This document shows positions 4,815 to 44,118 of a DNA stretch of 64,000 nt, in pieces (position 1 is the stretch's first letter; each line of letters opens with the position of its first letter). The notes under the pieces were generated by a model. That model was not told the origin of the DNA. It made no database searches and worked only from the letters and a program-made list of their open reading frames with translations. This stretch comes from Gammaproteobacteria bacterium (GTDB lineage Bacteria; Pseudomonadota; Gammaproteobacteria; Pseudomonadales; Halieaceae): contig JAUICG010000004.1 of assembly GCA_030427485.1 (NCBI GenBank), positions 122,955 through 186,954 of the forward strand, read 5' to 3'. A program made the translations under genes and the position numbers.

Positions 4815-4817
4815 TCG

Positions 4818-17955: not shown

Positions 17956-20900
17956 ATGACTTCGCCTGAACTTACCGGAGGCACCGGTTTTACCTACGAA
18001 GATGCTGTTGTGGCATACTACTTGGTGGCTCTCGTATCGGGGACAACTGCGGCAGGTCTTTCCTCTCGTGTGGTCGAGCGTGTTGCCCAGCAGCAAGCCG
18101 ACTTTGGTGAGCCGCTCGACGACGTCATCGTTGATGCAACCGGGCTAGCCGACGACTCGACAATGAGATTGTCACTACAAGTCAAACGTTCGCTCACGAT
18201 TTCCGATGCGGCTAGCAACACTGACTTCCGTGATGTTATGCAGCGGAGTTGGCAAACGTTACAGAAGTCGGACTTTCGCGAAAACCTTGATAGAGTGGGC
18301 GGGGTCGTGGGCACAGTCTCAGATGAGGCTTTTCGCAATTTCACGACCGTGTGTGAGTGGGCTCGCTCGTCCCAAACTACATCCTCTTTCCTCCAGCGCT
18401 TTGGTGATGGCGGCAACGCTTCTGCTGCTCACCGTGACGTGATTAACGCAGTGCGTAGTATTGCTCAAGAGTCAGCGGCGGGGCCTCTCTCCGATGGAAA
18501 CCTGCATCGGCTGTTTAGTCATCTAATCCTCGTGAAGTTGGATTTTCTGCATGAAGGGTCGACCGGCGAAGCAGACGTTCTGGCCGGGTTGCAGCGCGCA
18601 TTAGTGTCCAGTCAGTCAGGGCATGCGGCAGCGCTGTGGCAACAATTACGCCAGCTAGGGCGGGACGGTGCAGGACGCAGCGCGGAATTCACTCGCGCAT
18701 CGGTTCTCAGACAACTGACTGGCGGCATGAAGTTCGTCGGTACTCCGGCCCTTGCTGGTGACCTGCTGGTGTTGGCAGAGGGGGCCAGGCACTGGTTAGC
18801 GCAACAAGCCAATGACATCGGCGAAACCCATCTCGATCGAGCCGACTTGCGTACTAAGTTGGCCGCCGAGATGGCGGGTCATCGGCTGACCCTCATAAAG
18901 GGCCTGCCCGGGACCGGCAAGTCAGTTCTTCTGCGTGATCTACTTGCGGAGTACAACGCCGATGGATCCACATTGCTTCTGACTGCGAATAGACTCTCAG
19001 GTCGCAGTTGGGCTGAATATGCTAAAGCGATCGGACTGTCAACTGTGGCGATTGAGCCGCTCTTGGTCGAGATCGCCGCGACCGGTCACGCCTTGCTGTT
19101 GATTGACGGCTTGGATCGGATTCCTCCTGAGCAGCGACCAGTTGTTACTGACTTGCTAGGGCAGATTCTGTCGAATCCAGCGTTGGCCAATTGGCGAATC
19201 ATCGCAACCGCGCGCGACGCTGGGATTGAGCCGTTGCGGAACTGGGTGTCGCCAGTGCTTCTTTCGGGTGTGGGTGTCGGGTACGTAGATGTCAAAAACC
19301 TGACGGACGAGGAAGCGTCAACGCTCGCTGAGATGCTTCCGGCGCTGCGCGGTCTCCTGACAGAGGGCGACGATCGTGTTCGCGCTATTGCTCGACGGCC
19401 CTTTTTTGCAGCTGTCTTGGCTCGTGGGTTTGCCAAATCTACGTATTCAGCTGCGTTCGCGCCGCGATCCGAAGTGGATCTCATGGATGCTTGGTGGATG
19501 CGCGGAGGCCATGACGCACAGGATTCCCAGACACTGGCCCGGCAGCGTGCACTGATCGAGTTAGCGCAGCATGGCGCACCTGAACTTGGCCGTAATATAC
19601 GCATCCGTGATCTAACGTCAGCTACGCAGGGCGTTCTTCCGGCACTGGAGGAAGACGGGCTGGTACAGCAGGTTCGGCAGGGTCACACAGCGCAGTTCAG
19701 TCATGACATTTTCTTCGAGTGGTCGTACTACCATCTGCTGCTGGACCAAGGAGACGCGTGGATCAAAGCGTTGACGGACGCGGGTGAGCCGCCGGCGTTA
19801 GCGCGGGTCGTGGAGCTGTTGTCCCAAGCCACGTATGTCGACTCTGATGAATGGGTACATAGCGTGAAGACGCTGCAGGATGCAACGGTACGCCCGCAGT
19901 GGTTGAGAGCTTGGTTGATTGCGCCGATCTTTAGCCCGGACTTTAACGAGCGAGCTGAGATTTACGCATCGACATTGTCTGAGGACAACCACAGGTTGTT
20001 CGGCAAGCTCCTGGTTTGGATACAGGCCGAGAAGACAACACCCAATCCGGCGGTCTTGTCGGGCCAACTGGGGGGAACCAATGATATGCAGGCCGCCGCG
20101 CGCATTCGCCTTGCGGATGCGCTGGGTTGGCCTTCCGACTTTGCTGCGTGGCGCCGGTTGCTCCATTGGGCGCTGGATCATCTAGCAGCAGTCCCCGATC
20201 AATACTTGCCGGATCTCGTGACGCTGTTTGAGACGTGGCAGGTGGCTGTTGCGGACATCGCGAATCCAGTTTCTGAGAGGATTGTTCAGCAGTGCGCCAC
20301 GTGGCTGCACGCCATAGAAGATGAGAAGCAGTCTCGCCGATGGCGGCATAGCATAGACGATGTCGCTGCAGAGGAGCGGGAGCGCGTTCCCACCAATCTG
20401 GAAACTGAGCTACGCAGCTTGGTACTCAGGGCAGCGCGCGCCTACCCTGACGTGGTTAGCACCTACCTTACCAAGATTGAGACCATCGAACGACTGTCAG
20501 AGTCGGCTTTCCGTGAGGTGATGGGCTACGCACCCTTGCTGGCACAGACACATGCGGAGCTCCTAACACTGGTGGCCCGTCGCACTCTGATGAAAGAGCT
20601 ACCGGATGACATAGTGGTGCGCTGGCGCGACGAAGACCGGGAGGAGGGTCGCCATCGTGCGGAGGCCAGGGCGCTTCCCGAGGATCAGCGGACGCCTTTG
20701 GATGAGCTGATGCTAGCCAGCCCAATGTTTCCAAATTCGTTGTCGGACCACGATAGGCGCCGCTTATCGATCGGTGGCGACCATCAAGGCTATTTTCCAC
20801 CATCACCACTGCGTGAGCCATTTCACTCGCTGCTGATTCACGAGCCCGAGGTTGGACTAGTTCTCATACGCGACATGGCGAACCACGCTACGACGGCTTG

Positions 20901-23334
20901 GCATCAGTTTCATCACCATATGCAAGGCGAGGGTAGCCCCTTACCACTATCACTGGAGTTTCCGTGGGGCTGTCAGGACTTTTGGGGCACTGCACTTCAG
21001 TATCAATGGTTCCGCGGACATGGTGGGCCGCAAGCGCTAGAGTGCGCCTTGATGGCGCTTGAGCGCTGGGCGCTCAATCAACTGGATGAAGGGCGTTCAA
21101 CAGCCGAAGTTTTACAGCAGTTATTGGAAGGACATTCTAGTGTTGCCATTCTGGGCATCGCCGTGCATGTGGCCCTGCGGACTCAGGAAGTATCCGCAGT
21201 AACGTTGGCGCTGCTTGGCAGTCAGAGACTTTGGCGCTATGACCTCCAGCGGTGTGTACAAGAGTCGCAATTTCGAAGTGCAGGGCTTATTGGGTTTAAT
21301 CAAGATAATACCGAGATCACGCATCGTGAGGCCGTCATCAATGCCGGCGCTTTGGAGTCTCGTGGCTGGGAGTTGCGTTCTTTGGTTCCTCTATTTGTAC
21401 TTAGGGGTAACGAGCATTTGCGCGCTGCCTGCCGTAGTGCGCTCGAGCGATTTCCAGCAGAGTTACAGTTTGATTACGAAGAGGAGGAACAGGACGAAAA
21501 CCACGTAGCCGAACTGCGGCGGACGGCCGAGTTGTGGGCCGAGTGGGGCCGTGCCGAGAATTACGAAACTTCGGCGGTGCCAGGACGAGACGACGTGGTC
21601 GCGATTGAGCTCCGCAATCCGCGACATTCCTCTCCCGAGGTACAGGAGGCGCTACAGCGCCACGATCAGGTTTCTCAAGAAATAGAGCTTTGGCTCTGGG
21701 TTGTAAAGTGCTTCGAGTCACGCGAGTGGGCACCGGGATTTTCGCCGAGTGAAGCCGTTGAGCGAGCAAGTTCGATGTTTCTGGCTGTGGGGCAAGCAGA
21801 GTCATTGCTGCCTGATAGTGCCATCGCGCATGGCGCAATCGCCGGAACTGCGGCCGCGATTTACTGTTTCTCAGATGCGGAAGACCATAAAGCCTGGGCC
21901 GACGCTACCATAATAGCGTACATGGAAGAGTCGGATGAAGATGCGGGCGATGTGTTCTCGGGGTCGATAGTCTCGTGGCATCCCAAGATTTTTGTGGCTC
22001 ATGCCTTGGCCGCTCGCGTTCGAAGCGGCGGCGCCAGCTCGAGCGACCGTCAGGATCTCTACCAGCTTGTAACCCATCCGCTTGAAGTAGTTTCCTTTGC
22101 TGCCATCGAGGGGATCGCGAAATGCTGGAGACAGGATCAGCGTTTCGCTTGGTGTGGCTTTAACTTGGGTCTGCGTTTGGCGCAGTATAGGCATACGCAA
22201 GATGCGCACACTCTGAGCGCGACGGCCCGCCGAGAGGCGGAGGAATTACGTAGAAACGACGCTCTCACTGAAGCATGTCGAGAGTATGAATCCGAGGGGG
22301 ATCTTCCAACCTGGGTGCGGCCGCATCCGTCTTGGACACAGGATTCCTCCACCCGCAGGCACTACAGGGCCGATGAGGACGACGGTTGGCATCGCTGCGA
22401 TGATACCTGGCTCAGCGATTATGCAGCGAAAGTTTTGCATCTGGTTCCAGTGGTCGATGTCATGGGTAGTGCAGCAAGAAGCCAGTATGTCGGTGCGCTG
22501 GAGGCATTTGTTGCGTGGACGCTAGACACGCTCAACCCGGCGTGGCGAACGGAGCGTCGACGTGGTCGCGAACGTGATGGCGCCGGTTTGTATGAGTGGC
22601 AGGATGAGCTGGGGCGATTGATCGCACGAGTTGCGCCGCACCTACCTGCGGCAGAGGTGCGGGAGAAGTTGTTAGACCCCATTCTGGATCAGCCTGACGA
22701 GATTGCGATGCAACTACTACGTCCCTTTACCATAGCCATCACTTGCTCGGAAATCTTGGACTCGCCGGTGATCACGGATGACACGTTGGAGTTACTTCAG
22801 GCTGTGTTGGATCGTACGCTGCAACACCGTGACTTGTACCGATCGAGCTACAACAATGGGAGGATCAGTGGCTTCGACCTGCCTGACTTGATTAAGTCTT
22901 TGTTGTTTGTATTTGTGGAGCGTGCGGATATGGCGGCGCGATTCGCGAATGGAAACTGGAGCGACCTCCCACGGGTGTTGCCGCTAGTGGACAAAATGGT
23001 CCGGCAAGCTGGCTGGATCCCCTACATTGCGAGACAGTTTGTCACTCTCTGCGAAAGAGCAGGAGCCGACTATCCTGCGGACGTTCTCTCGGAACAGATC
23101 CTGGCACAGATTGAAGATGGAAACTTACCTTCGGGGTGGAAGGGAACGGGCATACCAGCATCGATTGCCGGAATTGTCCAAACGCATGCCGACCGACTAC
23201 ATCCTTTACCAGTTGAGTTGGCTCAAAAACTGTTACATATCTTAGATGCTCTTGTTGACCTCGGGGACCGTCGCAGCGCCGCACTTCAGTCAAGCGAATC
23301 ATTTCGTGGCGTGCGTCTACCGAGCGGCGCCTAG
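17956..23334 (+). CDS. Giant (1792 aa) NLR/STAND-like protein: Cap4/DUF4297-like PD-(D/E)xK nuclease N-domain + NACHT-like P-loop NTPase + ~1300-aa helical C-terminal region
   Basis: The N-terminus TGGTGFTYEDAVVAYYLVALV...PLDDVIVD...MRLSLQVKRS matches the GF.YQ...D...QxK pattern of Cap4-type nucleases. Walker A is LIKGLPGTGKSVLL (~18901-18924). Walker B is ALLLIDGLDRI (~19093-19116), as in NACHT modules. The rest is all-helical with no further recognisable motif. Confidence 0.75.
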   Translation: MTSPELTGGTGFTYEDAVVAYYLVALVSGTTAAGLSSRVVERVAQQQADFGEPLDDVIVDATGLADDSTMRLSLQVKRSLTISDAASNTDFRDVMQRSWQTLQKSDFRENLDRVGGVVGTVSDEAFRNFTTVCEWARSSQTTSSFLQRFGDGGNASAAHRDVINAVRSIAQESAAGPLSDGNLHRLFSHLILVKLDFLHEGSTGEADVLAGLQRALVSSQSGHAAALWQQLRQLGRDGAGRSAEFTRASVLRQLTGGMKFVGTPALAGDLLVLAEGARHWLAQQANDIGETHLDRADLRTKLAAEMAGHRLTLIKGLPGTGKSVLLRDLLAEYNADGSTLLLTANRLSGRSWAEYAKAIGLSTVAIEPLLVEIAATGHALLLIDGLDRIPPEQRPVVTDLLGQILSNPALANWRIIATARDAGIEPLRNWVSPVLLSGVGVGYVDVKNLTDEEASTLAEMLPALRGLLTEGDDRVRAIARRPFFAAVLARGFAKSTYSAAFAPRSEVDLMDAWWMRGGHDAQDSQTLARQRALIELAQHGAPELGRNIRIRDLTSATQGVLPALEEDGLVQQVRQGHTAQFSHDIFFEWSYYHLLLDQGDAWIKALTDAGEPPALARVVELLSQATYVDSDEWVHSVKTLQDATVRPQWLRAWLIAPIFSPDFNERAEIYASTLSEDNHRLFGKLLVWIQAEKTTPNPAVLSGQLGGTNDMQAAARIRLADALGWPSDFAAWRRLLHWALDHLAAVPDQYLPDLVTLFETWQVAVADIANPVSERIVQQCATWLHAIEDEKQSRRWRHSIDDVAAEERERVPTNLETELRSLVLRAARAYPDVVSTYLTKIETIERLSESAFREVMGYAPLLAQTHAELLTLVARRTLMKELPDDIVVRWRDEDREEGRHRAEARALPEDQRTPLDELMLASPMFPNSLSDHDRRRLSIGGDHQGYFPPSPLREPFHSLLIHEPEVGLVLIRDMANHATTAWHQFHHHMQGEGSPLPLSLEFPWGCQDFWGTALQYQWFRGHGGPQALECALMALERWALNQLDEGRSTAEVLQQLLEGHSSVAILGIAVHVALRTQEVSAVTLALLGSQRLWRYDLQRCVQESQFRSAGLIGFNQDNTEITHREAVINAGALESRGWELRSLVPLFVLRGNEHLRAACRSALERFPAELQFDYEEEEQDENHVAELRRTAELWAEWGRAENYETSAVPGRDDVVAIELRNPRHSSPEVQEALQRHDQVSQEIELWLWVVKCFESREWAPGFSPSEAVERASSMFLAVGQAESLLPDSAIAHGAIAGTAAAIYCFSDAEDHKAWADATIIAYMEESDEDAGDVFSGSIVSWHPKIFVAHALAARVRSGGASSSDRQDLYQLVTHPLEVVSFAAIEGIAKCWRQDQRFAWCGFNLGLRLAQYRHTQDAHTLSATARREAEELRRNDALTEACREYESEGDLPTWVRPHPSWTQDSSTRRHYRADEDDGWHRCDDTWLSDYAAKVLHLVPVVDVMGSAARSQYVGALEAFVAWTLDTLNPAWRTERRRGRERDGAGLYEWQDELGRLIARVAPHLPAAEVREKLLDPILDQPDEIAMQLLRPFTIAITCSEILDSPVITDDTLELLQAVLDRTLQHRDLYRSSYNNGRISGFDLPDLIKSLLFVFVERADMAARFANGNWSDLPRVLPLVDKMVRQAGWIPYIARQFVTLCERAGADYPADVLSEQILAQIEDGNLPSGWKGTGIPASIAGIVQTHADRLHPLPVELAQKLLHILDALVDLGDRRSAALQSSESFRGVRLPSGA

Positions 23335-23456
23335 AAGGTTGAAAACTTGTAGGGTAACTTGATTGGCCTTAAAGCGGCCGGGGTGCCTAGATTCAGACAG
23401 GGAATAATTAAGGTGTCGGAAATATGTATATATAATTCGGACTTTTGGCTTGCTGA

Positions 23457-23488
23457 ATGTCCGAAATAATGGTACAAATTTCGGACAT
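23457..23488. promoter_or_regulatory. Inverted-repeat operator candidate abutting the abiEi start
   Basis: ATGTCCGAAAT-aatggtacaa-ATTTCGGACAT (11-bp perfect arms). Related TCGGA half-sites occur at 23415-23419 and 23437-23441. The right arm ends in the probable abiEi ATG (23487). Confidence 0.5.
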
Positions 23489-24140
23489 GAGAGACACTAC
23501 ATCAGACTTGAAGACTGCGATCTTGGCGCGTATCGAAAACGGTGTGCAGCAAGGGGTCTGGACGCCACGAGATTTCCTCGATCTTGGCGCGCGCGATGCC
23601 GTTGACAAAACACTGCAGAGGCTGACACGCTCTGGAATTTTGCGGCGAGTCGATCGTGGTCTTTACGACAAGCCCTTACTCAATAGCCTGACACAACAGA
23701 GCAGTCCCCCCGATCCAAGACATGTCATTGATGCGATTGCTCGGCGAGATCAGGTTCGTGTACTTGTCGATGGCATGACCGCGGCAAATGATCTTGGGCT
23801 GACGAATGCGGTTCCTGCGAAGGTTGTTGTGCATACCGATGCGCGGCTCAAACCAATCTCGCTCGGCCAAATGGAAATCATCTTCAAGCCAACGGCTGCA
23901 AGCAAGTTATATTGGGCCGGGAGGCCGGCAATGCGCATCGTTCAGGCGCTGCATTGGTTGCGAGATACCATGGGCCAGGGAGATGAAGACGAGATATTGA
24001 TCCGTCGCCTGAACGCAATTCTTCATGATCAGGATGATGGCCGAATGCTTCGAGCGGATTTGTCTGAGGGCCTGCCGACACTGCCGAGCTGGATGCAGAG
24101 TTTGCTGAACCCGATGCTAAAAGAGCAGGTTAGCTCATGA
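23487..24140 (+). CDS. abiEi: AbiEi-type (DUF6088-like) type IV TA antitoxin / transcriptional regulator
   Basis: The track ORF starts at 23457, and I prefer the in-frame ATG at 23487 (MRDTTSDLKTAILARIENG...). ...WTPRDFLDLGARDAVDKTLQRLTRSGILRRVDRGLYDKP... is the wHTH signature of AbiEi-like antitoxins. The stop overlaps the abiEii start (ATGA). Confidence 0.75.
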   Translation: MRDTTSDLKTAILARIENGVQQGVWTPRDFLDLGARDAVDKTLQRLTRSGILRRVDRGLYDKPLLNSLTQQSSPPDPRHVIDAIARRDQVRVLVDGMTAANDLGLTNAVPAKVVVHTDARLKPISLGQMEIIFKPTAASKLYWAGRPAMRIVQALHWLRDTMGQGDEDEILIRRLNAILHDQDDGRMLRADLSEGLPTLPSWMQSLLNPMLKEQVSS

Positions 24141-25233
24141 TGAATCCTGAATTCGATCAGATTATGTCAGCGGACCACGAGACGCGGTTGGGTCTTTTTA
24201 CGACAACGGCTCAGCGTTTGGGAACCACTGCCCAGAATGTCGAAAAGGACTTCTGGGTTTGCTGGACTCTCGATGCGCTTTTCAATGGATTGCAAGACAG
24301 ACCCCGGCTGCTGTTCAAGGGTGGCACATCGCTCTCCAAAGGATATGGACTGATAAAACGATTCTCAGAAGATATCGACGTTACGGTATTCCGTGACGCT
24401 CTGGGAGAAGCGGCTTCAATTGAAGAGCTAAAAGCACTCAGCGGTAAGAAACGTGGCAAGGCTCTGGATGACATCAAGGCAGCCTGCGAGACTTACATCA
24501 ACGGACCGTGCTTAGCTGGACTTTCAGCGATCGTTAGCGAAGTAGCGAAGTAGCGAATCGCAATGGATTCAACAAAAGCCAATTTTTCGTCGAGCCAGAT
24601 CCTGAAGACAATCAGGCTCTATATCTGCGCTACCCGACCGCGACGCCTGTCGACACCTATATCACCAAGACGGTAAAAATAGAGTCGGGCGCCAAATCGG
24701 CCCTCGATCCCAACTCCAAACGCATCATCCGACCATATCTAGAAGACGATGTCCCTGGTATCGATCTGTCTGTCGGCAATGTTACAACAGTCGATGCGCA
24801 ACGAACCTTCTGGGACAAGGTTGTGATCCTGCATGGGCTTCGGCGCTGGTTCGATATCCGCGGTGAGCTCAAAGGGGATGGCCAGCCCGTATCGCGCCAC
24901 TATTATGATGCTTGCCAGCTATTGGCATCGCCGGTCGGGCAAAAGGCGCTGCAGGATCGCGAACTGGGCGCCGACTGCGTCGCACATGCCCGCATGTTCT
25001 TCAACCGTCCTGCCTTCGATCTCGCGACAGCAGTGGCGCCCACATTTGCCATTCGTCCGGAAGGAAAGGTGCTCGACGACCTTCGGCGCGACTATCGCGC
25101 CATGTCGGGCATGATCTTCGGCAAAGCTCCCGCGTTCGAAGCGATTATCGAGGACATAGCCGTGCTTGAGACAGCGCTGAACGCACAACCGACAGAGGGC
25201 GCTTCAGAGGCTGGCGGCCAGGGGCATGGCTAA
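24137..25233 (+). pseudogene. abiEii: AbiEii/AbiGii-family nucleotidyltransferase toxin (DUF1814), disrupted by an 8-bp tandem repeat expansion
   Basis: The N-terminal part (24137-24553) contains FKGGTSLSKGYGLIKRFSEDIDVTVF, the NTase GS...DxD motif. The frame stops at TAG 24551-24553. The rest continues stop-free in the frame of track ORF 24823-25233 from 24559 (RNGFNKSQFFVEPDPEDNQALYLRYP...). Deleting one 8-nt unit restores a 362-aa ORF. Confidence 0.8.
24535..24558 (+). repeat. 8-bp tandem repeat x3 inside abiEii
   Basis: TAGCGAAG TAGCGAAG TAGCGAAT. The third unit supplies the premature TAG. Confidence 0.95.
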
Positions 25234-28200
25234 AAAAACAAAAGCCAGAAAGCGGCGTCGCGATTCGAAGCAAGCTCCACATTTAGCCAAGGCAGCATCG
25301 AGAGCCGGATCGAATGCTGGGCGAGGGTTCAGGTATCAGGACGCAGTCTCGGTTTGGTTGGCGATAGAGATATGGACCGGTCGCCGGGCGCCGGCTATCT
25401 TGATCCCGGAAGGTGGTGATGATGTCGAATTACGTGGCGAAGAAACCACGTATATCCAAGTCAAAAGCCGACGCGAACATCTCGGTGATTATTCGGAAGG
25501 CGTGGCAGCAGGTTATATAAAAGAGCTGTGGGGCCGATCGCTTAGTTCCTCCCCGCAGCCGGAACGACTGGAGCTCGTTCTCGAACGGAACGTCGTCGGC
25601 TTTACCCCTCTCGGAGTGCAGCCAGCAAGTCGCGCTATCGAGGGACCAATCGCTACGAAGCTTTTTGAGTTCAGCCCATCTGACGAACTTCTCCCGAAAA
25701 CATCGATACAAATTTCCACCTCGCCCCAAGAGTGGTCAATCAGCATGATTGTCGACCAATTGAATTGTTCTCCGATCGCGGCCCAGATGTGTTTCGCAGA
25801 ACTGCTAGTTCGCGTGGGTGCTTTAGCCGATGCCAACGGCCGACTTTCGCCGGGAAACTATCGTGGACTTTCGGTCAGTGATATCGAGACATCAATTCGC
25901 GATGTAATGGCCGCTGTCGATGTTGCCTCAATCGAGGGCGCTATCCAGGAAGGTATCTGCGAACCGGTCGACTTTCTGACACCCCTCAATGATCCGAACT
26001 TCTATCTCGGGGTCGATGTGCAGCCAGGCCACATCGCCGCAGGGCTGGTTTCGGAACGCCCCAAGGGTCGGTTTGCTTTGGTTCAGGGCCTTGAAGAACG
26101 TCGCGCCGCCCTGATCATAGGTCCGTCCGGAGCGGGGAAATCTGCGTTGATGTGGGAGGCAGCCAACGCGTTGCGCCATACGGTGCGATGGTTCCAGATC
26201 CGTCGGCTCGAGATGACAGATATTCCCGCCATACGACAACTGATTCGGACGTTCCGCGCTTCCCAAGGAAGTCCCGTGGGTTTCGTAATGGACGATGTCG
26301 GGCGAAACAGTCCGGAGAGTTGGGGAGCACTGCTCAAAGAATCGATGTCGATTCCCGGTGTCATCATGCTCGGTTCGGCCCGGGAAGAAGATGTAACGTT
26401 GATCGCGGAGCGCGCTCGTGCAGTCGAAGTACGCGCGGACCCTGACGGTGAATTGGCGGAGCGACTCTGGAAGGAATTGCGCGAAGCTGGAAAGACGGAC
26501 TGGGCGGGTTGGCGAGAGCCATGGAAACTGAGTGATGGTCTCCTTCTTGAATATGTCCATATTCTTACGCGCGGCCGGAGGATGCAGGAAGTATTGGCCG
26601 ATCAGGTCGCGGCTAGAATCTCGGACCCAGCGCGTTCGCTTGAGCTCGATATTTTGCGATCCGCCTCATGGGCTGGTGCGGCAAATGCTGAAATCGATGC
26701 CTCGCGATTGGTCCGCACGCTCTCTGTAAGTGAAGCTGATCTATCCTCAGCGCTGCAGCGGCTAATCCACGAGCATTTGGTTCGGTCGCCTGTGCCTGGT
26801 ACTCTTGCTGGTCTGCACCAACTTCGATCTAAAGAGTTACTGCGTGTGACCCATCAGACAATGTTGCCGACTCTGCAAACGAGTTTCGAACGGACAGTCG
26901 CGAGCGTGCATGCTGTCAATCTCGAACCCTTGGTCGCCGACGCCTTATTTGCGCGGCGCCTGCCGGTCTTGGCAGTGCTCAATAGTTTGATCGTCCGGTT
27001 GGAGAATGAACCAGATGCACGGGCTCTCGCATCAGGACTTCGAGGCTTGGGCTCCGGACGCATTTCTGCTGGAGTGGATGAGTGGCTGGAAACTTCCGAG
27101 GCCCGCGCCCTCCCGCGAACGCAGGTCGGGACCGCTGCAATGTTCGGAATCGCCGGTATCGATCTTGGCAGTCTCGACATTATCCCGGAAGTTCAAGCTG
27201 CAGCCGATCGGCTCTCCCGGATCAAAGGTTCGCCGGAAGATGACCCTCGTCGCTTGCTGATGGAGCGTATGGCCTCGTCCACCTTGTCTGTTCTGATAGA
27301 GGAGGCGGATCTGACGAGCCTTGATGAGATTCTTGGAGCTCTACTCGGTGTGCCTTTATCAGTGGCAGTGCGGTCCGCACTCAGGCGGATTCCATCAAAC
27401 TTACTGAATGCTGATTTGCACCTCGTAGGCTCAGTTATGGGAACGTTGACCGCGCTCGACCGCGAGATCGCGATCCAGTGGGCCACTGAGGTCGGACAAG
27501 AGGTGCTCTTTGCAAAGATTCAGGCAGAGACCGCTTGGGCCGGACCTGTATCTATTGAAAAAGGGGATGACGGAGTGATCGTTCACTGCGACCTCTGGTA
27601 TGTGGCTGGGTCCGTTCAAGGAAATCCGCATGACACAGTTGTGAGTCTATGCGAGTTGATCTTGGCTCTGTGCCCGTCGGCTGACATCGCGATGTCGAGT
27701 GCAATCACTGTGAGCGGTGAGTTGGCAGGTCTTGCTGAGCTGCCGCTTGTAACCAAACGTATACCGCGAGGGAATCTCCCGCCACCATCTCTTCCGCAAT
27801 GGAACAGGCGCTGGGGCGATCTGGTTTCCCGTCGCATCGCCGCTCCAAGTTATAGCGACTATCTTGCAAGAGGTGTGGCTATCCTCGAAGTCCTTGTGCC
27901 CACGTTGGCGAAGATCTTCGATGCACATTTTCGCGGAAAGGAGGCGCCTAGCGGCCTTTTCGAGACGCTCAATTCGCTCAATGCAGAGACCGAGGCGCTG
28001 ACACCTCCAGCTATTTCGTCATTTGTCGCGTCAGGCGCAGGGAGTGAAGACGCAAGCACCGCAGTCACCAAGTTCCAGAATCTGCTTCACAGCTCAAGTG
28101 TGAATCTGATTAAAGGGTTCGCGAAGCTACCTGAACAAGCAGGCGCGTATATCGCTTGGTTGAATGATCTCATCACTGATGTGGATGTTGAGATTGCTGA

Positions 28201-29116
28201 GGAGCCATGGCAGCTTATTGCCGATTGCTCCCCATCAGCGCTAGCGCGACTGAAGGCCCTTTTGGAAACACTGCGGTTGCTTGCCGGTGAAGCCCATGAG
28301 CGACAGGAGCCTCCGGCAGCAACTTGGGCGGGCCGTGGCAAGGGGGCGCGCGTGGGTAACGCCTTACGGCGGGTGTCGCTTTCAGCTGAGGCTGCAGGAG
28401 AAAAGCGATTGGTTCAGCTTAAGGCAGAAATTGAACGGTCGACGAAAGAGGCGGGGATCAAGGCGGTTTTCCATCTCCGGGTCAACCCAAACGGTATTCT
28501 GCCGTGGCCTCCGGTGGATGTTCTCGCGCTGCTTCCGTCTAGTGACGTTGCAGGTGCAGTGATTGCGCTCAATCAGCAAACGGATCTGTTGCGATCGTTT
28601 GTAGATTCCGCGATGCATCTGACAGTCCTGCCCTTTATCAATGGTGTTGCGTTCCCAGCGCTCGCGAAGTCTGGAATTCGGACTTTTTTACCAGATATTG
28701 AGGGCGCCACAGCTTGGACCAAAAATCTCAATTTGGCGTGCGCGTCATCAGAGACGTCTGGTCTGTTTGGCGAAGTGCTGAGCGTGGCGGCTGAACTCCG
28801 AGCAATGGATCGTCTGGAGCTTGGTGTCGAATCTCGGCCTGAAGCCGAAGTGATCGCACGCCGAAGCCTGGAGGTCTCTTTCGGTGAGAAGAGAGAACAG
28901 CTGGTCCAACAACTGGGCAACTTTGACCGGGATGCTCAAACAGATTTTTTCGAGTTGATCGAGCGTCTGCGAACCGGGGAAATAGATTTTATTGCGGAAG
29001 CGCAGGCAGCGATTGGCGGGGTCTCAACAGAGATTATGGAAACTACAGGTTATTTGACCCTGCTTGTGATCGAATATGAGTGGCAGGCCGAAGTGGTCAA
29101 AAGGGAATCGAAATAG
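25226..29116 (+). CDS. Giant (1296 aa) Cap4/DUF4297-like nuclease + P-loop NTPase + helical C-terminal protein
   Basis: Basic tail MAKKTKARKRRRDSKQ. Then GRGFRYQDAVSVWLAIEIW...IPEGGDDVELRGEETTYIQVKSRRE, which is GF.YQ / E..DD / QxK. Walker A is ALIIGPSGAGKSALMWE (~26120-26143). The Walker-B-like motif is VGFVMDDVG. The start ATG overlaps the abiEii stop (ATGGCTAA). Confidence 0.8.
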   Translation: MAKKTKARKRRRDSKQAPHLAKAASRAGSNAGRGFRYQDAVSVWLAIEIWTGRRAPAILIPEGGDDVELRGEETTYIQVKSRREHLGDYSEGVAAGYIKELWGRSLSSSPQPERLELVLERNVVGFTPLGVQPASRAIEGPIATKLFEFSPSDELLPKTSIQISTSPQEWSISMIVDQLNCSPIAAQMCFAELLVRVGALADANGRLSPGNYRGLSVSDIETSIRDVMAAVDVASIEGAIQEGICEPVDFLTPLNDPNFYLGVDVQPGHIAAGLVSERPKGRFALVQGLEERRAALIIGPSGAGKSALMWEAANALRHTVRWFQIRRLEMTDIPAIRQLIRTFRASQGSPVGFVMDDVGRNSPESWGALLKESMSIPGVIMLGSAREEDVTLIAERARAVEVRADPDGELAERLWKELREAGKTDWAGWREPWKLSDGLLLEYVHILTRGRRMQEVLADQVAARISDPARSLELDILRSASWAGAANAEIDASRLVRTLSVSEADLSSALQRLIHEHLVRSPVPGTLAGLHQLRSKELLRVTHQTMLPTLQTSFERTVASVHAVNLEPLVADALFARRLPVLAVLNSLIVRLENEPDARALASGLRGLGSGRISAGVDEWLETSEARALPRTQVGTAAMFGIAGIDLGSLDIIPEVQAAADRLSRIKGSPEDDPRRLLMERMASSTLSVLIEEADLTSLDEILGALLGVPLSVAVRSALRRIPSNLLNADLHLVGSVMGTLTALDREIAIQWATEVGQEVLFAKIQAETAWAGPVSIEKGDDGVIVHCDLWYVAGSVQGNPHDTVVSLCELILALCPSADIAMSSAITVSGELAGLAELPLVTKRIPRGNLPPPSLPQWNRRWGDLVSRRIAAPSYSDYLARGVAILEVLVPTLAKIFDAHFRGKEAPSGLFETLNSLNAETEALTPPAISSFVASGAGSEDASTAVTKFQNLLHSSSVNLIKGFAKLPEQAGAYIAWLNDLITDVDVEIAEEPWQLIADCSPSALARLKALLETLRLLAGEAHERQEPPAATWAGRGKGARVGNALRRVSLSAEAAGEKRLVQLKAEIERSTKEAGIKAVFHLRVNPNGILPWPPVDVLALLPSSDVAGAVIALNQQTDLLRSFVDSAMHLTVLPFINGVAFPALAKSGIRTFLPDIEGATAWTKNLNLACASSETSGLFGEVLSVAAELRAMDRLELGVESRPEAEVIARRSLEVSFGEKREQLVQQLGNFDRDAQTDFFELIERLRTGEIDFIAEAQAAIGGVSTEIMETTGYLTLLVIEYEWQAEVVKRESK

Positions 29117-29359: not shown

Positions 29360-30820
29360 ATGATTGATGATTTCCCGCAACTCGTTGAACAGCTGAGTGC
29401 AAGTGGTTTCACCGTAGATCCGCCTCACCTCCATGGCCTGCTGACCGGTTTCGCCACCACGCCGGACCCGGATATGAGCAAGCTGTGGAAATCGATGGGG
29501 GGCGATCAGCCGCTCGCGGTCGCGATTAAAGAAGCGGTTACCGATCTCCTCGATTCCCTGTCTGAAGCTCTTTCTGTAAATGAGTTCCGGGCCGAGTTCA
29601 GAGAAGACCGAGACGACCCGCCGCGGTGGCTAAAAGGTTATTTTCGGGCTATTGAACTCCATGAGGAGCAGTGGCTGGAGGAGAACGAGAACCACCCAAA
29701 AGCTGCAATGGCCCTCATGCTGCTTCAGTCGTTGCTTAATGAGGAGCTGCGAAAGGATCTCCAAATCGAGCAGCCCGGACACGAAGAACTGAGGGATAAT
29801 CCACACATCGTTTCCGAACTCGTGGTGGCGATCTACCAACGTATATATGGGGACCTGGACGAAGAGTTCGACTTCGCACAAGACCAGTCTCTCTGCACTC
29901 CCAGTTTCTCCCGAGACATGCTGATGGCGATGGATGAAGATGCGCTTTTCTCAATCGTTACGGGTTACAACGACCGACTGCCCCTTGAAGTCGTAAAGGA
30001 GTGCGCGAATCGGGGAGACGCCATGGTGCCGATTTTACGGCGGCATTTGGAGTATGAAGCCAGCTGGGGTATTGATGCAGACTCCGGCGATTGGTGGGCG
30101 TTACTACATGCCGTTTTCATCCTTGGTCTTATACCAGGTGATGCATCAGCCCAGGCACTGCTGGAGGGTTTTCGCCGCATCACCTTCGATGCAGACGGCA
30201 ACAATTTGGCCGACTGGATTTCTGGTTACTGGCCTGCTCTGTGCCACAATAAATCGGACTATACGAATGAGCCGTTGCGAAGGATCGCAGAAGATAGGAC
30301 GCTGGACTGGTATCCCCGCAGCCATGCCGTAGAATGTGTGCTCGCCGAGGCCTCTGAGCAATGCCCCAACAGTTTGGAAGCCGCACTGGACTGGCTCGCT
30401 GCTCTCTGTGCCGATGAGTCGAATCCCCCAGATTTCCGCGTTCTGGCCGCAAATCACCTGCTTAGCTTCCCCAGACAGCGGCATCGGCTATTGATGAATG
30501 AGCTGATAGCACTACAGAAGTCGGGCTCCTGGTACAGCAATTCCTTTGGCCATAGCGATATCGAAAGTTCCTTCGCCAGGGGCGACGATCCTGATTGGGT
30601 TCGCTTCGACAATCCCTGGCGGTTCTACGAGCCGAATGAAATTGAACGGCGACAGCGCCGCTGGATTCGGGAAGACAGGGAGCGGGAAGAGAGAGAATGC
30701 ATCGATCACTGCATCCATGAGCCGGTGGAAACCTACGTCAGAGATCAGTCCAAGGTCGGTCGAAACGATTCCTGCCCTTGTGGCAGCGGTAGAAAGTACA
30801 AAAAGTGCTGCTTGCAATGA
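29360..30820 (+). CDS. UPF0149 (YgfB/YecA-like N-domain) / DUF1186-like / SEC-C motif protein
   Basis: 486 aa. The N-terminus ...FTVDPPHLHGLLTGFATTP... resembles UPF0149. The C-terminus GRNDSCPCGSGRKYKKCC is a canonical SEC-C zinc motif. Confidence 0.75.
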   Translation: MIDDFPQLVEQLSASGFTVDPPHLHGLLTGFATTPDPDMSKLWKSMGGDQPLAVAIKEAVTDLLDSLSEALSVNEFRAEFREDRDDPPRWLKGYFRAIELHEEQWLEENENHPKAAMALMLLQSLLNEELRKDLQIEQPGHEELRDNPHIVSELVVAIYQRIYGDLDEEFDFAQDQSLCTPSFSRDMLMAMDEDALFSIVTGYNDRLPLEVVKECANRGDAMVPILRRHLEYEASWGIDADSGDWWALLHAVFILGLIPGDASAQALLEGFRRITFDADGNNLADWISGYWPALCHNKSDYTNEPLRRIAEDRTLDWYPRSHAVECVLAEASEQCPNSLEAALDWLAALCADESNPPDFRVLAANHLLSFPRQRHRLLMNELIALQKSGSWYSNSFGHSDIESSFARGDDPDWVRFDNPWRFYEPNEIERRQRRWIREDREREERECIDHCIHEPVETYVRDQSKVGRNDSCPCGSGRKYKKCCLQ

Positions 30821-30872
30821 TCGGATCGATCCTCCTTGAAGAGACGGAGCAAAATACTTCGCATAGTCATGG

Positions 30873-30904
30873 GGCGCAGCCTTGCGCCTTACGTATCATT
30901 TTTT
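30873..30904 (+). terminator. Weak intrinsic-terminator candidate after the SEC-C gene
   Basis: GGCGCA-gcct-TGCGCC hairpin (30873-30888), followed 10 nt later by T6 (30899-30904). The stem is short and the T-tract is displaced. Confidence 0.3.
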
Positions 30905-30956
30905 GAACGAGTGTGGCGTGATTTAGAACCACAAACACGCCAACTAAGTCTTTTTA

Positions 30957-30987
30957 ATGGCGTGATTAAACGCTAAAATCCCGCCAT
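30957..30987. promoter_or_regulatory. Palindrome upstream of fic paralog 1
   Basis: ATGGCGTGA-N13-TCCCGCCAT. It has the same geometry as 42903-42933. A further TGGCGTG...CACGCCA pair lies at 30914-30952. Confidence 0.4.
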
Positions 30988-31059
30988 GACAAAGTGGCAG
31001 GACAGACAGTTTGCACGGCTGAAAGCCGCCCGCCAAGGTGCGGCACAGGGATGTGCCGC

Positions 31060-32205
31060 ATGAAATGGATATGGCAGCAACCCGACTGGCCAGATTTTCG
31101 CTATGACAATCGCGCGCTCAATGATCGGGAACTTGAGTTTCGTCTGAACTCAGAGCGCTTGGCGGGTAGCTTTGATGCACTTCCCATGGCATCTAAACAG
31201 GATGCCACGATCGATTTGATGCTTTCCGAGGCCATCAAAACTAGCGCCATTGAAGGCGAGAATCTGGACAGGGAATCAGTCAGGTCATCGCTACTCTCTT
31301 TGATAACATCGGATACGTTGCGGGACAACTCAGACGTGAAAGCGGCGGGGGCTGCTGCGCTGCTGGTGGACGTTCGCAAGAACTGGCGTTCATCCCTGAC
31401 ACATGACCTGCTGGGCAAGTGGCAATCCATGGCTGTACCGGAACAGCGCTATACGCCTATTTTGCGAGGCGCATATCGCAACGACCCTTCGCCAATGCAA
31501 ATCGTGAGCGGGCCTTATGGCCGGGAAAAGGTTCATTATGAAGCTCCGCCAGCGATCCGGGTGCCTGATGAAATGGCGAGATTTCTCGGCTGGTACAACA
31601 AGACCAGTCCTTCAAGAGATCACAACACGAAATCAGGGATTGCCCGAGCCGGTATTGCCCATCTGTGGTTTGAAATTATTCATCCCTTTGACGATGGTAA
31701 TGGGCGAGTCGGTAGGGCGATCGCTGACCACGCTCTTTCGCAGTTTCTCGGTTATCCGACAACCGCCTGCCTTGCCACTGCGATAGAGGCGGATAAGAAA
31801 ACTTATTACCTGCAACTGGAGAAAGCGAGTCGTACAAGTCTGGACGTTAACACCTGGCTCGATTACTTTGCCGATAGGGTCATCATGGCACAGGAAATTG
31901 CCCGGGAAGAGGTACACTTTGTATTGAGCAAGACACGTTTTTATGAGGTCTATGGTAATCAGTTGAATGACCGGCAGGCCCGGATGGTGTCGCGGGTATT
32001 CGCTGAAGGCCGGAAGGGCTTTGAAGGTGGAATAACGACCAGGAAATATGAAGCGATCACCAAGTGCCCAAACCGAACGGCTAGCCGCGATTTGTCAGAC
32101 CTGGTTGCCAAAGGAATCATCATCCCGCTACCGGGTGGAGGCAGGACGACCCGATATGAGTTGAGCATTGACGAACCGGTCGGTTTTGGTTTCGGGGAGA
32201 GATAA
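31060..32205 (+). CDS. Fic/DOC family protein with DUF4172-like N-terminus and C-terminal wHTH (paralog 1, intact)
   Basis: The start is chosen by alignment with paralog 2 (MKWIWQQPDWPDFRY vs MRWIWQQSDWPGFRY); the track ORF begins at 30994. Fic motif HPFDDGNGRVGRA. N-terminal inhibitory-helix-like TSAIEG, matching (S/T)xxxE(G/N). Confidence 0.9.
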   Translation: MKWIWQQPDWPDFRYDNRALNDRELEFRLNSERLAGSFDALPMASKQDATIDLMLSEAIKTSAIEGENLDRESVRSSLLSLITSDTLRDNSDVKAAGAAALLVDVRKNWRSSLTHDLLGKWQSMAVPEQRYTPILRGAYRNDPSPMQIVSGPYGREKVHYEAPPAIRVPDEMARFLGWYNKTSPSRDHNTKSGIARAGIAHLWFEIIHPFDDGNGRVGRAIADHALSQFLGYPTTACLATAIEADKKTYYLQLEKASRTSLDVNTWLDYFADRVIMAQEIAREEVHFVLSKTRFYEVYGNQLNDRQARMVSRVFAEGRKGFEGGITTRKYEAITKCPNRTASRDLSDLVAKGIIIPLPGGGRTTRYELSIDEPVGFGFGER

Positions 32206-33445: not shown

Positions 33446-34906
33446 GTGAATTTTTCCGGCTGGCAGGCCAGGTTTCGCCGTTTACAGGATGAACACGCGA
33501 CCTGGAAGTTGTTGCGCGCGGACAACGCCCCCATCATTCTCGCCTTCATTGCCGATCTGTTCGCGGAGGAGAATGAAGTACCCTTCGCGCGGGCACGCAT
33601 CGCTCTGGATGCGGAACTGGAACGCGGCCGGGAATTGGGTTACTGGCAAAGCGAAAGCGGGGCAGGCATCTACCTGAACCAGTGGATACGCGCGGGCTGG
33701 CTGCGAGAAATGGACGACATGCTGAGTAAAACTGACGCCAGTGAAACCGCGTTACGATTTTGCCGGACACTCGACGAACCGACTGCCGGTACCTCCGCCT
33801 CCCATCTTCGAATCGTACAGGAAGCGGTGCGAGATTTTGCTGTTGCGGTCAACCCGGATCTTGACGAGCGGGTCGCCCAGCTTGAGCAACGCCAGCAGGA
33901 AATCCAGCACAGCATAGACGATCTGCGTGCGGGCGCGAGCGTGGAGCTCAGTGAAACCGAACAACGTGAACGCATACGCGAGATTTACCAGTTGGCGTCG
34001 GTGCTGACCGGTGATTTTCGCCGTGTGGAGGATGAGATTCGACGCATTGACAAGGATTTAAGAATCCAGATCATCGAAGGTGATTCCACCCGCGGGAACG
34101 TGTTGCTCGAACTGATGGAGAAGGAGATTCTGCTAGCGAATACTGATGCGGGCAGTGCATTCGAAGGATTTTTTCAGCTGTTGTGTGACCAGAACCGCTC
34201 GACCGAATTCAGCGATCAGTTACGTGGTATCCTCAGCCTGCCGGTGGCCCATCACCTCAATCCCGCCCAGCGCCAGTTCCTTGTCCGGTTGATGCGCGAA
34301 TTGTCACGCGAGAGCGAGCGCGTGTTCCGCATCCGTCGGCGTACCGAAGAGGGCTTGCGCGGGTATATCGAAAGTGGCGTGGCTCAGGAAAACCGCGCGG
34401 TGACGCGCCTGTTGTCCGAGCTGGAACGCAGCGCCATCGCCCTACGCGAAAACGGCTGTGATTTGAAGACACGAACCCGGCTGGAACTGCAGGTTGGCGT
34501 ACCCGAAATTCGATCTCCCGAAAGCATGAATCTGCGACTGCCAGACGAAAACCTGGATACCTCTGGCGTCGAGGAGCAGGCCAATCGCCGCGAGCCGAGT
34601 AAGGAAATGCTCGACAGCCTGGAGGCGGTACAGATCCGCCGAGTCGCCGAGCGTACCCTGGCGGCCCTGCGCCGATATGGTCCCATGACGATTTCCGCGT
34701 TATCCCGATACCAACCGCTACAGGCGGGGCTGGAAGAACTGGTTGCCTGTATGAGGGTGGCCCGTGCCGTTCACGCGACGGACCTCAATACCACCGAACT
34801 GGTCGAAGTCCACGATAAACAGGGTTCGCGGATTATGGCCTCGATTCCCGGGCTCCTGATGAGCGCCGAATTGTTTCCCGCCAACATCGACGAGCTGACG
34901 CTGTAG
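33446..34906 (+). CDS. jetA: Wadjet JetA (DUF3375 / MksB-like kleisin)
   Basis: 486 aa with a GTG start. It is the first of four tightly packed genes. The N-terminus ...WKLLRADNAPIILAFIADLF... and the length fit DUF3375. Confidence 0.8.
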   Translation: MNFSGWQARFRRLQDEHATWKLLRADNAPIILAFIADLFAEENEVPFARARIALDAELERGRELGYWQSESGAGIYLNQWIRAGWLREMDDMLSKTDASETALRFCRTLDEPTAGTSASHLRIVQEAVRDFAVAVNPDLDERVAQLEQRQQEIQHSIDDLRAGASVELSETEQRERIREIYQLASVLTGDFRRVEDEIRRIDKDLRIQIIEGDSTRGNVLLELMEKEILLANTDAGSAFEGFFQLLCDQNRSTEFSDQLRGILSLPVAHHLNPAQRQFLVRLMRELSRESERVFRIRRRTEEGLRGYIESGVAQENRAVTRLLSELERSAIALRENGCDLKTRTRLELQVGVPEIRSPESMNLRLPDENLDTSGVEEQANRREPSKEMLDSLEAVQIRRVAERTLAALRRYGPMTISALSRYQPLQAGLEELVACMRVARAVHATDLNTTELVEVHDKQGSRIMASIPGLLMSAELFPANIDELTL

Positions 34907-34909
34907 CCT

Positions 34910-35677
34910 ATGAGCGAAAAGGACTTCTTCGACGATCTGATCAAGGCGCAGTCGACTGTATCGGTCGAGGCTGATCCACTAAACATGGATGAGGACAACG
35001 GTATTGAGCAGTCGTCAGCGGATGCACCGTCCTCCGCGCCAGCGATCGATGATCAGCCGGCACCCTTGACACACGAAGCCCGCCGCGCGCTGGTGTATCT
35101 GTTGCGCCAGGGTTCGGCGCTGGCACGGCAAAAAAGCGAGATATTCGAACTGACTTGCCGATACCAGGATGCCTTGCGCAACCACCTCGAGAATATGTAC
35201 CTGCGACTGGTCATCGATGAGCGCTACGGCGTCGCGTTTATCGCCAACGCGCAAAACCCCAATGACGGGGACGACGATGGCGAGAGCGTCAGGCTGATCA
35301 GTCGTCGAACGCTGACCCTTTACGATACACTGCTGACCCTGGTGTTGCGCAAGTATTTTCAGGACCGTGAAACTCAGGGTGAGCAGAAGATTAATATCGA
35401 TATCGAAACGGTAGAAGCAGGCCTGAGCCCGTTTTTGCCTTTGACCAACAGCACTCGCTCGGACCGCAAACAACTGGTCACTTCGCTGAAACGCATGATC
35501 GAAAAGCGCATCCTGGTAGTTGTTCGCGGCAGTGAAGAACGCTTTGAGATTTCGCCACTGATTCGTCACGTGGTATCTGCCGAATTTCTTCAGCATATGT
35601 TAAATGAGTATCAACGCCTGGCTGACGAACAATCGGGTGAAGAACAGATACGAGACGATCCACAGGACGATGACTGA
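34910..35677 (+). CDS. jetB: Wadjet JetB (DUF4194 / MksE-like)
   Basis: 255 aa with an acidic N- and C-terminus. The core ...ARRALVYLLRQGSALARQKSEIFELTCRYQDALRNHLENMYLRLVIDERYGVAFI fits DUF4194. It starts 4 nt after jetA. Confidence 0.8.
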   Translation: MSEKDFFDDLIKAQSTVSVEADPLNMDEDNGIEQSSADAPSSAPAIDDQPAPLTHEARRALVYLLRQGSALARQKSEIFELTCRYQDALRNHLENMYLRLVIDERYGVAFIANAQNPNDGDDDGESVRLISRRTLTLYDTLLTLVLRKYFQDRETQGEQKINIDIETVEAGLSPFLPLTNSTRSDRKQLVTSLKRMIEKRILVVVRGSEERFEISPLIRHVVSAEFLQHMLNEYQRLADEQSGEEQIRDDPQDDD

Positions 35678-44076: not shown

Positions 44077-44118
44077 GTTACCCTGTGGGTCGTTGATTTT
44101 TTGTGTCGATTAGCAGGA

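Follow-up and report, generated by a model that had tools for sequence, protein, structure and literature searches.

Does the AbiE gene pair in the DNA studied here form a three-gene system with the very large gene that follows it, or have two separate defence modules been placed end to end? The DNA, hereafter the window, is a stretch of 64,000 nucleotides (nt) from a Gammaproteobacteria bacterium of the family Halieaceae (assembly GCA_030427485.1, contig JAUICG010000004.1, positions 122,955 to 186,954), in which abiEi and abiEii run directly into big, a gene for a protein of 1296 amino acids (aa) referred to below as the giant. AbiE is an abortive-infection system of the toxin-antitoxin (TA) kind, assigned to type IV and by a recent proposal to type VII (PMC3985639; PMC7319586; bioRxiv 10.64898/2026.01.19.700257), and it has been described as bicistronic (PMC3985639). 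We hold with moderate confidence that the window contains a defence operon of a mobile, modular kind that has partly decayed here, with an AbiE cassette stacked on an autonomous Avs-like sensor. The elements of this unit, including two palindromes found by a repeat search, are as follows.

23414-23442, forward strand: operator-like palindrome 1, GTCGGAAAT-N10-AATTCGGAC, in the abiE promoter region.
23458-23486, forward strand: operator-like palindrome 2, GTCCGAAAT-N10-ATTTCGGAC, abutting the conserved ATG at 23487.
23457-24140, forward strand: abiEi, an intact open reading frame (ORF) for an antitoxin/repressor of the DUF6088 type; probable true start at 23487.
24137-24553, forward strand: 5' fragment of abiEii, 138 aa, with the nucleotidyltransferase (NTase) motifs FKGGTSLSK and SEDIDVTV and a premature TAG at its end.
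24536-24551, forward strand: 8-bp tandem duplication, AGCGAAGT twice, which frameshifts abiEii.
24559-25233, forward strand: 3' fragment of abiEii in the +2 frame, with a TAA stop that overlaps the start of the giant.
25226-29116, forward strand: big, an intact ORF for the 1296-aa Avs-like STAND nuclease.
25226-25330, forward strand: Lys/Arg-rich N-terminal tail of the giant (aa 1-35), predicted to be disordered, with a predicted local distance difference test (pLDDT) score below 50.
25331-25975, forward strand: Cap4-like PD-(D/E)xK nuclease domain of the giant (aa ~36-250), with the core PEGGDDVE...QVKSRR at 25406-25474.
26063-26905, forward strand: STAND-type P-loop NTPase module of the giant (aa ~280-560), with Walker A GPSGAGKS at 26120-26143 and Walker B GFVMDDVG at ~26282-26302.
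27023-29113, forward strand: C-terminal domain of the giant, ~700 aa, a presumed sensor made of helical repeats and two alpha/beta subdomains.

The three genes are joined by overlapping stop and start codons, and both of the overlaps that the initial annotation had described were confirmed from the window sequence. The TGA of abiEi (24138-24140) overlaps the ATG of abiEii (24137) in an ATGA, and the TAA in the abiEii frame (25231-25233) overlaps the ATG of the giant (25226) within ATGGCTAA (25226-25233). The same ATGGCTAA junction was seen in AbiE-linked relatives of the locus, so the overlap is more than a coincidence. Between abiEii and the giant no intergenic space remains, and a consensus scan showed no terminator-like site there. 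Joined to abiEii in this way, the giant is without an intergenic promoter region of its own.

This arrangement recurs elsewhere, as a search for giant homologues directly 3' of AbiEii, the check proposed in the initial annotation, made clear. One genome per species was scanned for homologues of the giant, which gave 44 loci. AbiEi-AbiEii, or the part of it visible at a contig edge, was found directly 5' of the giant in 15 of them (L001, L003, L007, L010, L012, L014, L019, L023, L026, L029, L034, L039 and L042-L044). These belong to Rhodobacterales, Sphingomonadales, Hyphomicrobiales and Rhodospirillales, to a Nitrococcus (Gammaproteobacteria) and to a metagenome-assembled genome of Oligoflexia. 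Three of the 15, Gymnodinialimonas mytili (L003), Hyphomonas sp. CY54-11-8 (L023) and Roseitalea sp. MMSF_3546 (L029), are cultured strains whose operon is intact. In nearly all 15 the abiEii stop lies 7 nt inside the giant gene, at ATGGCTAA. The two closest metagenome relatives of the window share the arrangement: L131, with a giant 85% identical to that of the window, has an intact 362-aa AbiEii that overlaps as in the window, and L130, with a giant 76% identical, has AbiEi-AbiEii-giant with housekeeping genes 5' and QatABC 3'. Deletion remnants were also found, in that L016 and L018 retain only the 3' end of abiEii in front of the giant, from the last ~60 nt (L016) to ~160 nt (L018). In a tree of the giant proteins the AbiE-linked loci are interleaved with loci that have no AbiE, and the branch formed by the window and L001 stands at about 72% giant identity, and about 80% AbiE identity, to the main group. 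Because of this interleaving, and because linkage is shared down to ~72% giant identity, the fusion of AbiE with the giant is taken to be old and to have been lost repeatedly.

The two parts of the unit also occur apart. About 20 close homologues of the giant, roughly half of the close set, are without AbiE, with the gene intact in most, and stand behind at least two alternative 5' regions. In these AbiE-less loci the first ~12 codons of the giant have been exchanged as well, and are still rich in Lys and Arg codons. More distant homologues, L127-L129 (55-61% identity) and one on an Agrobacterium pAt plasmid (27%), had neither AbiE nor a co-directional giant partner, and all five distant homologues sampled were AbiE-less. 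For the reverse sample, the best 80 metagenome matches to AbiEii, at 51-70% identity, were taken; all 80 loci were without the giant. Sixty-one of these loci had at least 600 nt of downstream sequence. The neighbour 3' of abiEii lies on the opposite strand in 35 of the 61, which is the classical bicistronic AbiE arrangement, and in 16 of the 61 a co-directional gene starts between -70 and +20 nt from the abiEii stop. Genes coupled to abiEii in this way include those of type I-C Cas3/Csd1, a SIR2 plus LmuB Lamassu-like set, an M78-UvrD-PD-(D/E)xK protein and a TPR-VRR-NUC protein; AbiE loci of the same DUF6088 subfamily with such other cargo are, for example, L067:4106-9247, L084:2975-7724, L061:7077-11912 and L050:1554-3224.

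In one group of AbiE-less loci, a gene for a ChaC-like gamma-glutamylcyclotransferase stands co-directionally, 40-91 nt 5' of the giant (L005:429-1001, L006, L009, L015, L020:8990-9961 and L031), and the loci of this group bring their own version of the first ~12 codons of the giant.

At the junction itself the AbiE cassette has been replaced at least in part of the family. A second AbiE lineage, 52-58% identical to the main one, occupies the same junction in L007, L039 and L043, and it is not until ~45 nt short of the giant's start that its sequence again agrees with that of the main lineage. This pattern indicates a recombination breakpoint near AbiEii residue 346 and, by sequence comparison, cassette exchange in these three loci. 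Given the swapped lineage, the AbiE-less giants and the other cargo, AbiE is best described as a 5' cassette that can be exchanged and that stands at the head of various defence cargos. Co-divergence of AbiEii and the giant was considered as evidence of co-evolution and was dropped, the correlation being weak (r = 0.40) because one AbiE lineage had been swapped in. In L039:10001-13448 and in L042-L044 internal deletions have reduced the giant to its first 100-230 codons, and the giant stub of L039 directly abuts a truncated HNH-NACHT gene. It follows from these deletions in AbiE-linked loci that AbiE and its cargo decay independently.

Could the linkage be nothing more than hitch-hiking in a defence island, that is, one insertion spread horizontally without regulatory or functional consequence, with the giant using its own signals? 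The surroundings would suit such an account, as the island of the window holds an Avs4-like gene, AbiE, big, a Fic/SoFic-like gene, Wadjet JetABCD and a TOTE-like fragment, and integrases flank many of the loci. Most linked loci, moreover, are 84-97% identical in the giant and hence are not independent samples, and AbiE or big has often been lost or truncated independently (L016, L018, L039, L042-L044). We nevertheless consider pure hitch-hiking unlikely. The exact 8-nt overlap is kept through ~28% protein divergence and across bacterial classes, and the junction was preserved when AbiE was replaced by the 52-58% identical lineage. Space for an intergenic promoter is lacking at the junction, and in AbiE-less loci the entire 5' region has been exchanged along with the first ~12 codons, which fits expression signals supplied from upstream.

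The condition of the toxin gene in the window bears on whether the genes depend on each other. The two halves of abiEii match positions 3-114 and 119-305 of a single 309-position PADLOC AbiEii model (PDLC02289), and the 5' fragment also matches Pfam AbiEii (7e-14). The ORF is split by the 8-bp tandem duplication, and for this reason abiEii is a pseudogene in the window, while abiEi and the giant are intact. In an alignment with four intact abiEii orthologues the 8-bp insertion was present only in the window, and with one copy deleted in silico the gene encodes an AbiEii of 362 aa, 79-82% identical to intact orthologues. Orthologues are intact at 362 aa in L131, L003, L023 and others. The homology of the window gene to DUF1814/COG2253 NTase toxins is thus clear, but an intact toxin ORF is not present. 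The gene is also frameshifted in L043, and big or abiEi persists in such loci. Ribosomes translating abiEii would stop at 24553, so that translational coupling of abiEii to the giant is lost in this genome, and the giant must therefore rely on the Shine-Dalgarno-like AGGGG just 5' of its ATG.

A more ambitious explanation is an integrated three-component system in which the AbiEii NTase and the STAND nuclease are interdependent. For example, the STAND sensor might trigger AbiEii activity or its release from AbiEi, or a modification or signal made by AbiEii might license the nuclease; AbiEi would restrain both. Such an explanation could draw on the stop/start overlap, kept in AbiE-linked loci down to ~72% giant identity, and on the compactness of the trio in otherwise different surroundings (L130, L131, L014 and L023). 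A further point is that a distinct AbiE subtype, AbiEi_1 with AbiEii, is coupled likewise (ATGGCTGA/ATGTCTGA) to another nuclease-NACHT giant in L027 and L033, and the pairing of a Pol-beta-fold NTase (AbiEii) with a Cap4-like effector loosely recalls the logic of the cyclic oligonucleotide-based antiphage signalling system (CBASS). Against this stand the ~20 intact AbiE-less giants, the distant homologues found alone, the absence of the giant from the 80 related AbiE loci, and the frameshifts in abiEii in the window and L043 while big or abiEi persists. In addition, AbiE cassettes are found at the head of operons with unrelated cargo, Pfam and PADLOC detected neither a SAVED domain nor any other nucleotide sensor in the giant, and no literature was found that links AbiE, AbiEii or DUF1814 to STAND, NACHT or Avs proteins or to a third gene. 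Interdependence of this kind is in our judgement improbable. The proposal of an obligate third cistron was likewise not borne out, since many intact giants are AbiE-less, none of the 80 related AbiE loci has a giant, and the toxin gene is dead here. In the modular reading, the two modules are independent of each other, and the toxin has decayed here while abiEi and the giant stay intact.

What, then, is the giant? All of the peptide motifs quoted in the initial annotation were found in the translation of 25226-29116: the basic N-terminal tail claimed there (MAKKTKARKRRRDSK) is present at aa 1-15, followed by GRGFRYQDAV (aa 32-41), GGDDVEL (aa 63-69), YIQVKSR (aa 76-82) and GPSGAGKS (aa 299-306). 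Every homologue has such a basic tail, including those whose first ~12 codons have been swapped. Across 18 homologues of 55-85% identity, PEGGDDxE...QxKSRR, Walker A GPSGAGKS and Walker B MDDVG are invariant, and all are present in the giant of the window; the invariant nuclease residues are E62, D65, D66, E68, Q78 and K80. Profile matches are modest. Pfam Cap4_nuclease scored 19.5 bits against a gathering cut-off of 26.2 (E 1.2e-3), the PADLOC matches to LmuA and HamA cover only residues 23-84 (E 3.5e-4 to 3.5e-3), and the NTPase matched Pfam AAA_16 (4.5e-6) and, weakly, nSTAND3. None of the NCBIfam or PADLOC families matches the giant as a whole protein, and a search of its family profile against PDB sequences returned nothing.

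Structure prediction was more informative. An AlphaFold model of residues 1-620 consists of a disordered basic tail, an alpha/beta nuclease domain modelled with confidence (pLDDT mostly between 75 and 93 for aa 40-240) and a P-loop domain. The top PDB matches of this model in Foldseek were Avs3 (8DGC, 1.9e-8) and Avs4 (8DGF, 4e-7); SAMD9 and HamA (8zue) were also matched, among many generic AAA+ ATPases. The claim of a Cap4-like nuclease joined to an NTPase is thus supported by the motifs, the invariant residues and the Avs3/Avs4 fold matches, with a weak Cap4_nuclease profile. Residues 600-1296 gave an AlphaFold2 model with a pLDDT of 88 and a predicted template modelling score (pTM) of 0.76. 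A fold search of this C-terminal domain against the PDB found nothing better than E = 0.1, and the domain has no Pfam, NCBIfam or PADLOC match. All three parts of the tripartite Avs plan are present, with an effector at the N-terminus, a STAND ATPase that bears Walker A and B motifs in the middle and a large domain at the C-terminus. By its modelled architecture the giant is accordingly best classed as a putative antiviral-STAND (Avs-like) nuclease lying outside every Avs family recognizable by the profiles used. It matched no Avs model of PADLOC 2.0 or NCBIfam r20; newer catalogues, which are said to list more than 90 Avs families, lie outside this comparison.

Homologues of the giant form a uniform family. 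There are 773 of them, each of ~1300 aa, and the N-terminal 620 aa detected 1115 representative clusters (50% identity) at E <= 1e-3 and 413 at E <= 1e-30; almost all have a length of ~1.3 kaa. Most of the close homologues with a source name go under 'hypothetical protein'. The public gene call for the giant of the window (P0001) is 1123 aa long, 100% identical over 87% of the query and 173 residues shorter; it appears to begin at an internal Met, which would drop most of the nuclease domain (aa 1-173, corresponding to 25226-25744).

Comparison with known systems places the two modules more exactly. The unit resembles AbiE in having an AbiEi-family HTH (helix-turn-helix) antitoxin followed by a DUF1814/COG2253 NTase, an ATGA overlap and paired inverted repeats in the promoter. 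It differs in that the pair runs gap-free, in the window and at least 15 other genomes, into a STAND nuclease (1296 aa in the window), often with a fourth, giant gene, and in its DUF6088-subtype AbiEi and, in the window, its frameshifted toxin gene. With Avs3 and Avs4 (8DGC, 8DGF; bioRxiv 10.64898/2026.08.25.746987) the giant shares a single chain that carries a Cap4/Mrr-type nuclease, a STAND ATPase and a large C-terminal domain. Unlike theirs, its C-terminal domain is not TPR-like by any match and is without a solved structural relative; the giant also has a basic disordered N-terminal tail and often stands between AbiE and a NACHT giant. Its nuclease has the same PD-(D/E)xK variant (D...D/E...QxK) as CBASS Cap4, LmuA and HamA, but is fused to a STAND ATPase, and SAVED, CD-NTase, LmuB SMC and HamB were not found. 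A CBASS-like reading of NTase plus Cap4 effector was rejected, as SAVED and a CD-NTase were not found and AbiEii belongs to the DUF1814 family. Membership of Lamassu or Hachiman was also rejected, only the N-terminal nuclease motif being matched and neither LmuB nor HamB adjoining the unit. Cap4/Mrr-nuclease Avs proteins are already well known; taken alone, the giant adds one more Avs-like protein, and the AbiE-headed operon is a variation on known systems.

The promoter region offers a candidate for what the AbiE cassette contributes. AbiEi matched PADLOC AbiEi PDLC02233 (1e-100, residues 16-224), Pfam DUF6088 (1.2e-26) and, weakly, the AbiEi_4 HTH, and it has the N-terminal winged HTH and C-terminal antitoxin domain of AbiEi-family antitoxins. 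The two palindromic units are each 29 nt long and lie ~44 nt apart, and the pair is kept 5' of abiEi in 13 of the 13 AbiE-linked relatives examined. The half-sites of palindrome 2 form a perfect 11-nt inverted repeat (23457-23467 and 23478-23488). In relatives, an ATG aligned with 23487 is conserved directly after the conserved palindromic operator, whereas the triplet aligned with the 23457 ATG of the window is CTG, TTG, GTG or CCG in most. Because only the former is conserved as a start, the true abiEi start is probably the ATG at 23487. Binding of paired inverted repeats by AbiEi-family antitoxins is the established mode of abiE autoregulation (PMC7319586; PMC3985639), and the palindromes of the window resemble the architecture of the published inverted-repeat operators of AbiEi and Rv2827c (PMC7319586). 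They are presumably bound by the AbiEi repressor. WYL-domain regulators, which co-localize with diverse phage defence systems (PMC9122601), provide a parallel, in that a small DNA-binding autoregulator with palindromic operators stands 5' of diverse cargo. Unlike WYL-headed operons (PMC9122601), the head here is a complete TA pair and not a lone WYL regulator, and control of the cargo by AbiEi is putative.

Based on this anatomy, a mechanism can be proposed. The first module would be the AbiE TA/abortive-infection cassette, consisting of the two-operator promoter, abiEi and abiEii, and the second an autonomous single-chain immune sensor of the Avs type. The giant would most likely be transcribed from the AbiEi-repressed promoter and be translationally coupled to abiEii. 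By analogy with Avs3 and Avs4, its C-terminal domain would bind a phage protein, after which the giant would oligomerize via the STAND ATPase, the Cap4-like nuclease would be activated and DNA would be destroyed. AbiE would add tight, autoregulated low expression and possibly stabilization of the island through addiction. AbiEii, when intact, would act as a second and independent layer of abortive infection.

Several observations weigh against this mechanism or the reading behind it. The C-terminal domain of the giant resembles no known Avs sensor. The scan for consensus promoters and terminators was uninformative, with 3 promoter-like sites against 3.7 expected by chance and counts at or below those of shuffled sequence. 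The remnants in L016 and L018 hint that a promoter or ribosome-binding site of the giant's own could lie inside the abiEii 3' end, and if so, dependence on the abiE promoter would be weakened. Finally, few independent events lie behind the recurrence (one old fusion, kept down to ~72% protein identity, one cassette replacement and one separate AbiE-NACHT coupling), and nothing in the analysis shows functional dependence between AbiE and the giant.

A bolder generalization, which we regard as speculative and doubtful, is that AbiE pairs are general-purpose 'operon heads' that arm and restrain large immune effectors through the AbiEi-repressed promoter; in its strongest form AbiEii and the STAND nuclease would belong to one integrated three- or four-gene circuit. 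If so, expression or activation of the cargo would be coupled to a TA switch, such that, for example, loss of AbiEi in infection would de-repress the nuclease. The cargo would be the STAND nuclease here and NACHT giants, type I-C Cas genes or Lamassu-like sets elsewhere. In the literature AbiE figures as a self-contained two-gene module, and the annotation tools used treat it likewise; defence predictors that stop at 'AbiE' miss the attached genes. That this AbiE subfamily is repeatedly fused to giant sensors or other defence cargo suggests a means of tight control and stable inheritance for costly or toxic immune proteins. The uniform and unannotated family of the 1296-aa type, with its 1115 clusters, is also a good candidate source of new phage-recognition specificity.

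Homologues of the giant often have a second giant downstream. Of 41 assessable loci, about 28 have a co-directional gene for a protein of 1200 to ~2000 aa directly 3' of big. The junctions that were read show this gene overlapping the stop of big by 8-14 nt, in two loci again at ATGGCTAA; in more divergent loci the second giant starts within ~100 nt, and a few loci have a truncated or split copy, or one displaced by an insertion sequence. Most of these proteins are ~1470 aa long, with an HNH endonuclease, a NACHT P-loop and a C-terminal NCAB2 domain, for which a relevant paper was not found in the literature. Others are NACHT-like without a family match (L016, L021, L038), Avs3a (L035), Avs4-like (L036) or a MkoC-like helicase (L030). 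Examples of the pair are L003:10001-18296, L007, L019, L026, L034 and, on plasmid CP010856.1, L125:7013-15194; the Marinovum plasmid pMaD1 carries such a pair annotated only as hypothetical proteins. Big and the HNH-NACHT giant are, on this gene-order evidence, a candidate tandem NLR-like pair, and their frequent pairing offers a testable bacterial case of tandem NLR-like genes. In L027 (3223-9744) and L033, a different AbiE subtype, AbiEi_1 with AbiEii, overlaps a giant at ATGGCTGA or ATGTCTGA on the minus strand, 5' of big. That giant is a NACHT-NCAB2 variant with a PD-(D/E)xK N-terminus, and big is divergently transcribed beside it. These two loci add another instance, independent of the first, in which AbiE is fused to an NLR-like nuclease.

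The surroundings of the AbiE-giant unit in the window are as follows.

17956-23334, forward strand: 1792-aa NACHT/Avs4-like protein, an independent defence gene outside the AbiE-giant unit.
29360-32205: UPF0149/SEC-C gene followed by a DUF4172-Fic gene; PADLOC PDC-S12 match on the SEC-C motif, and SoFic (1.7e-35).
33446-40290: complete Wadjet-type JetABCD (DUF3375, DUF4194/MksE, SMC-like ATPase, JetD).
35604-39083: Wadjet JetC, the only SMC-type ATPase found near the AbiE-giant unit.
40318-41376, reverse strand: TOTE-like ORF, with the C-terminal end of an AEP primase and the N-terminus of a ResIII/DEAD helicase.

The initial annotation had read the order giant - AbiE - giant as a sensor/effector pair, and a related explanation would be an NLR-like pair in which the giant and a second STAND giant act as sensor and helper, the second being here the 1792-aa protein and AbiE an accessory. 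The downstream giants in ~28 of 41 loci speak for pairing in general, as does the occurrence of the same giant family beside big, after the AbiE pair, in L027 and L033. The window itself fits poorly. It has no HNH-NACHT or other giant downstream, big being followed by the UPF0149/SEC-C gene. The 1792-aa protein was rejected as an orthologue of the downstream partner: within the partner family the L027/L033 variant alone can be aligned with it, over no more than its N-terminal ~390 aa, and the NCAB2 domain was not found in it. It belongs instead to a large uniform family of ~1790 aa, and scored 90.8 bits with NCBIfam Avs4 (cut-off 1500) and 9e-17, partially, with PADLOC Avs4. In three of three sampled genomes members of this family stand alone, with neither AbiE nor big nearby, and L130, the closest relative with upstream sequence, has housekeeping genes where the window has the 1792-aa gene. 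On these grounds a conserved giant - AbiE - giant arrangement was rejected, and the order in the window is best read, from these gene neighbourhoods, as island crowding. Plasmids of Methylocystis and Rhizobium etli carry the partner giant without big, and big occurs without any giant partner in L130, L014, L018, L023 and L127-L129. A sensor/helper pair is therefore very unlikely as an account of this locus, and the modular reading of an AbiE cassette joined to an autonomous sensor is retained.

In relatives, the position taken in the window by the UPF0149 and Fic genes is occupied by the HNH-NACHT partner or by QatABCD. The TOTE-like ORF is probably a fragment of a larger TOTE conflict-system gene. 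Taken as a whole, the window is a dense defence island. No tRNA gene lies within its 64 kb. G+C content is ~48-59% up to ~44 kb and ~59-65% beyond (44000-64000), and this shift points to an acquired island that holds the heavy-metal efflux genes (1853-11955) as well as the defence genes.

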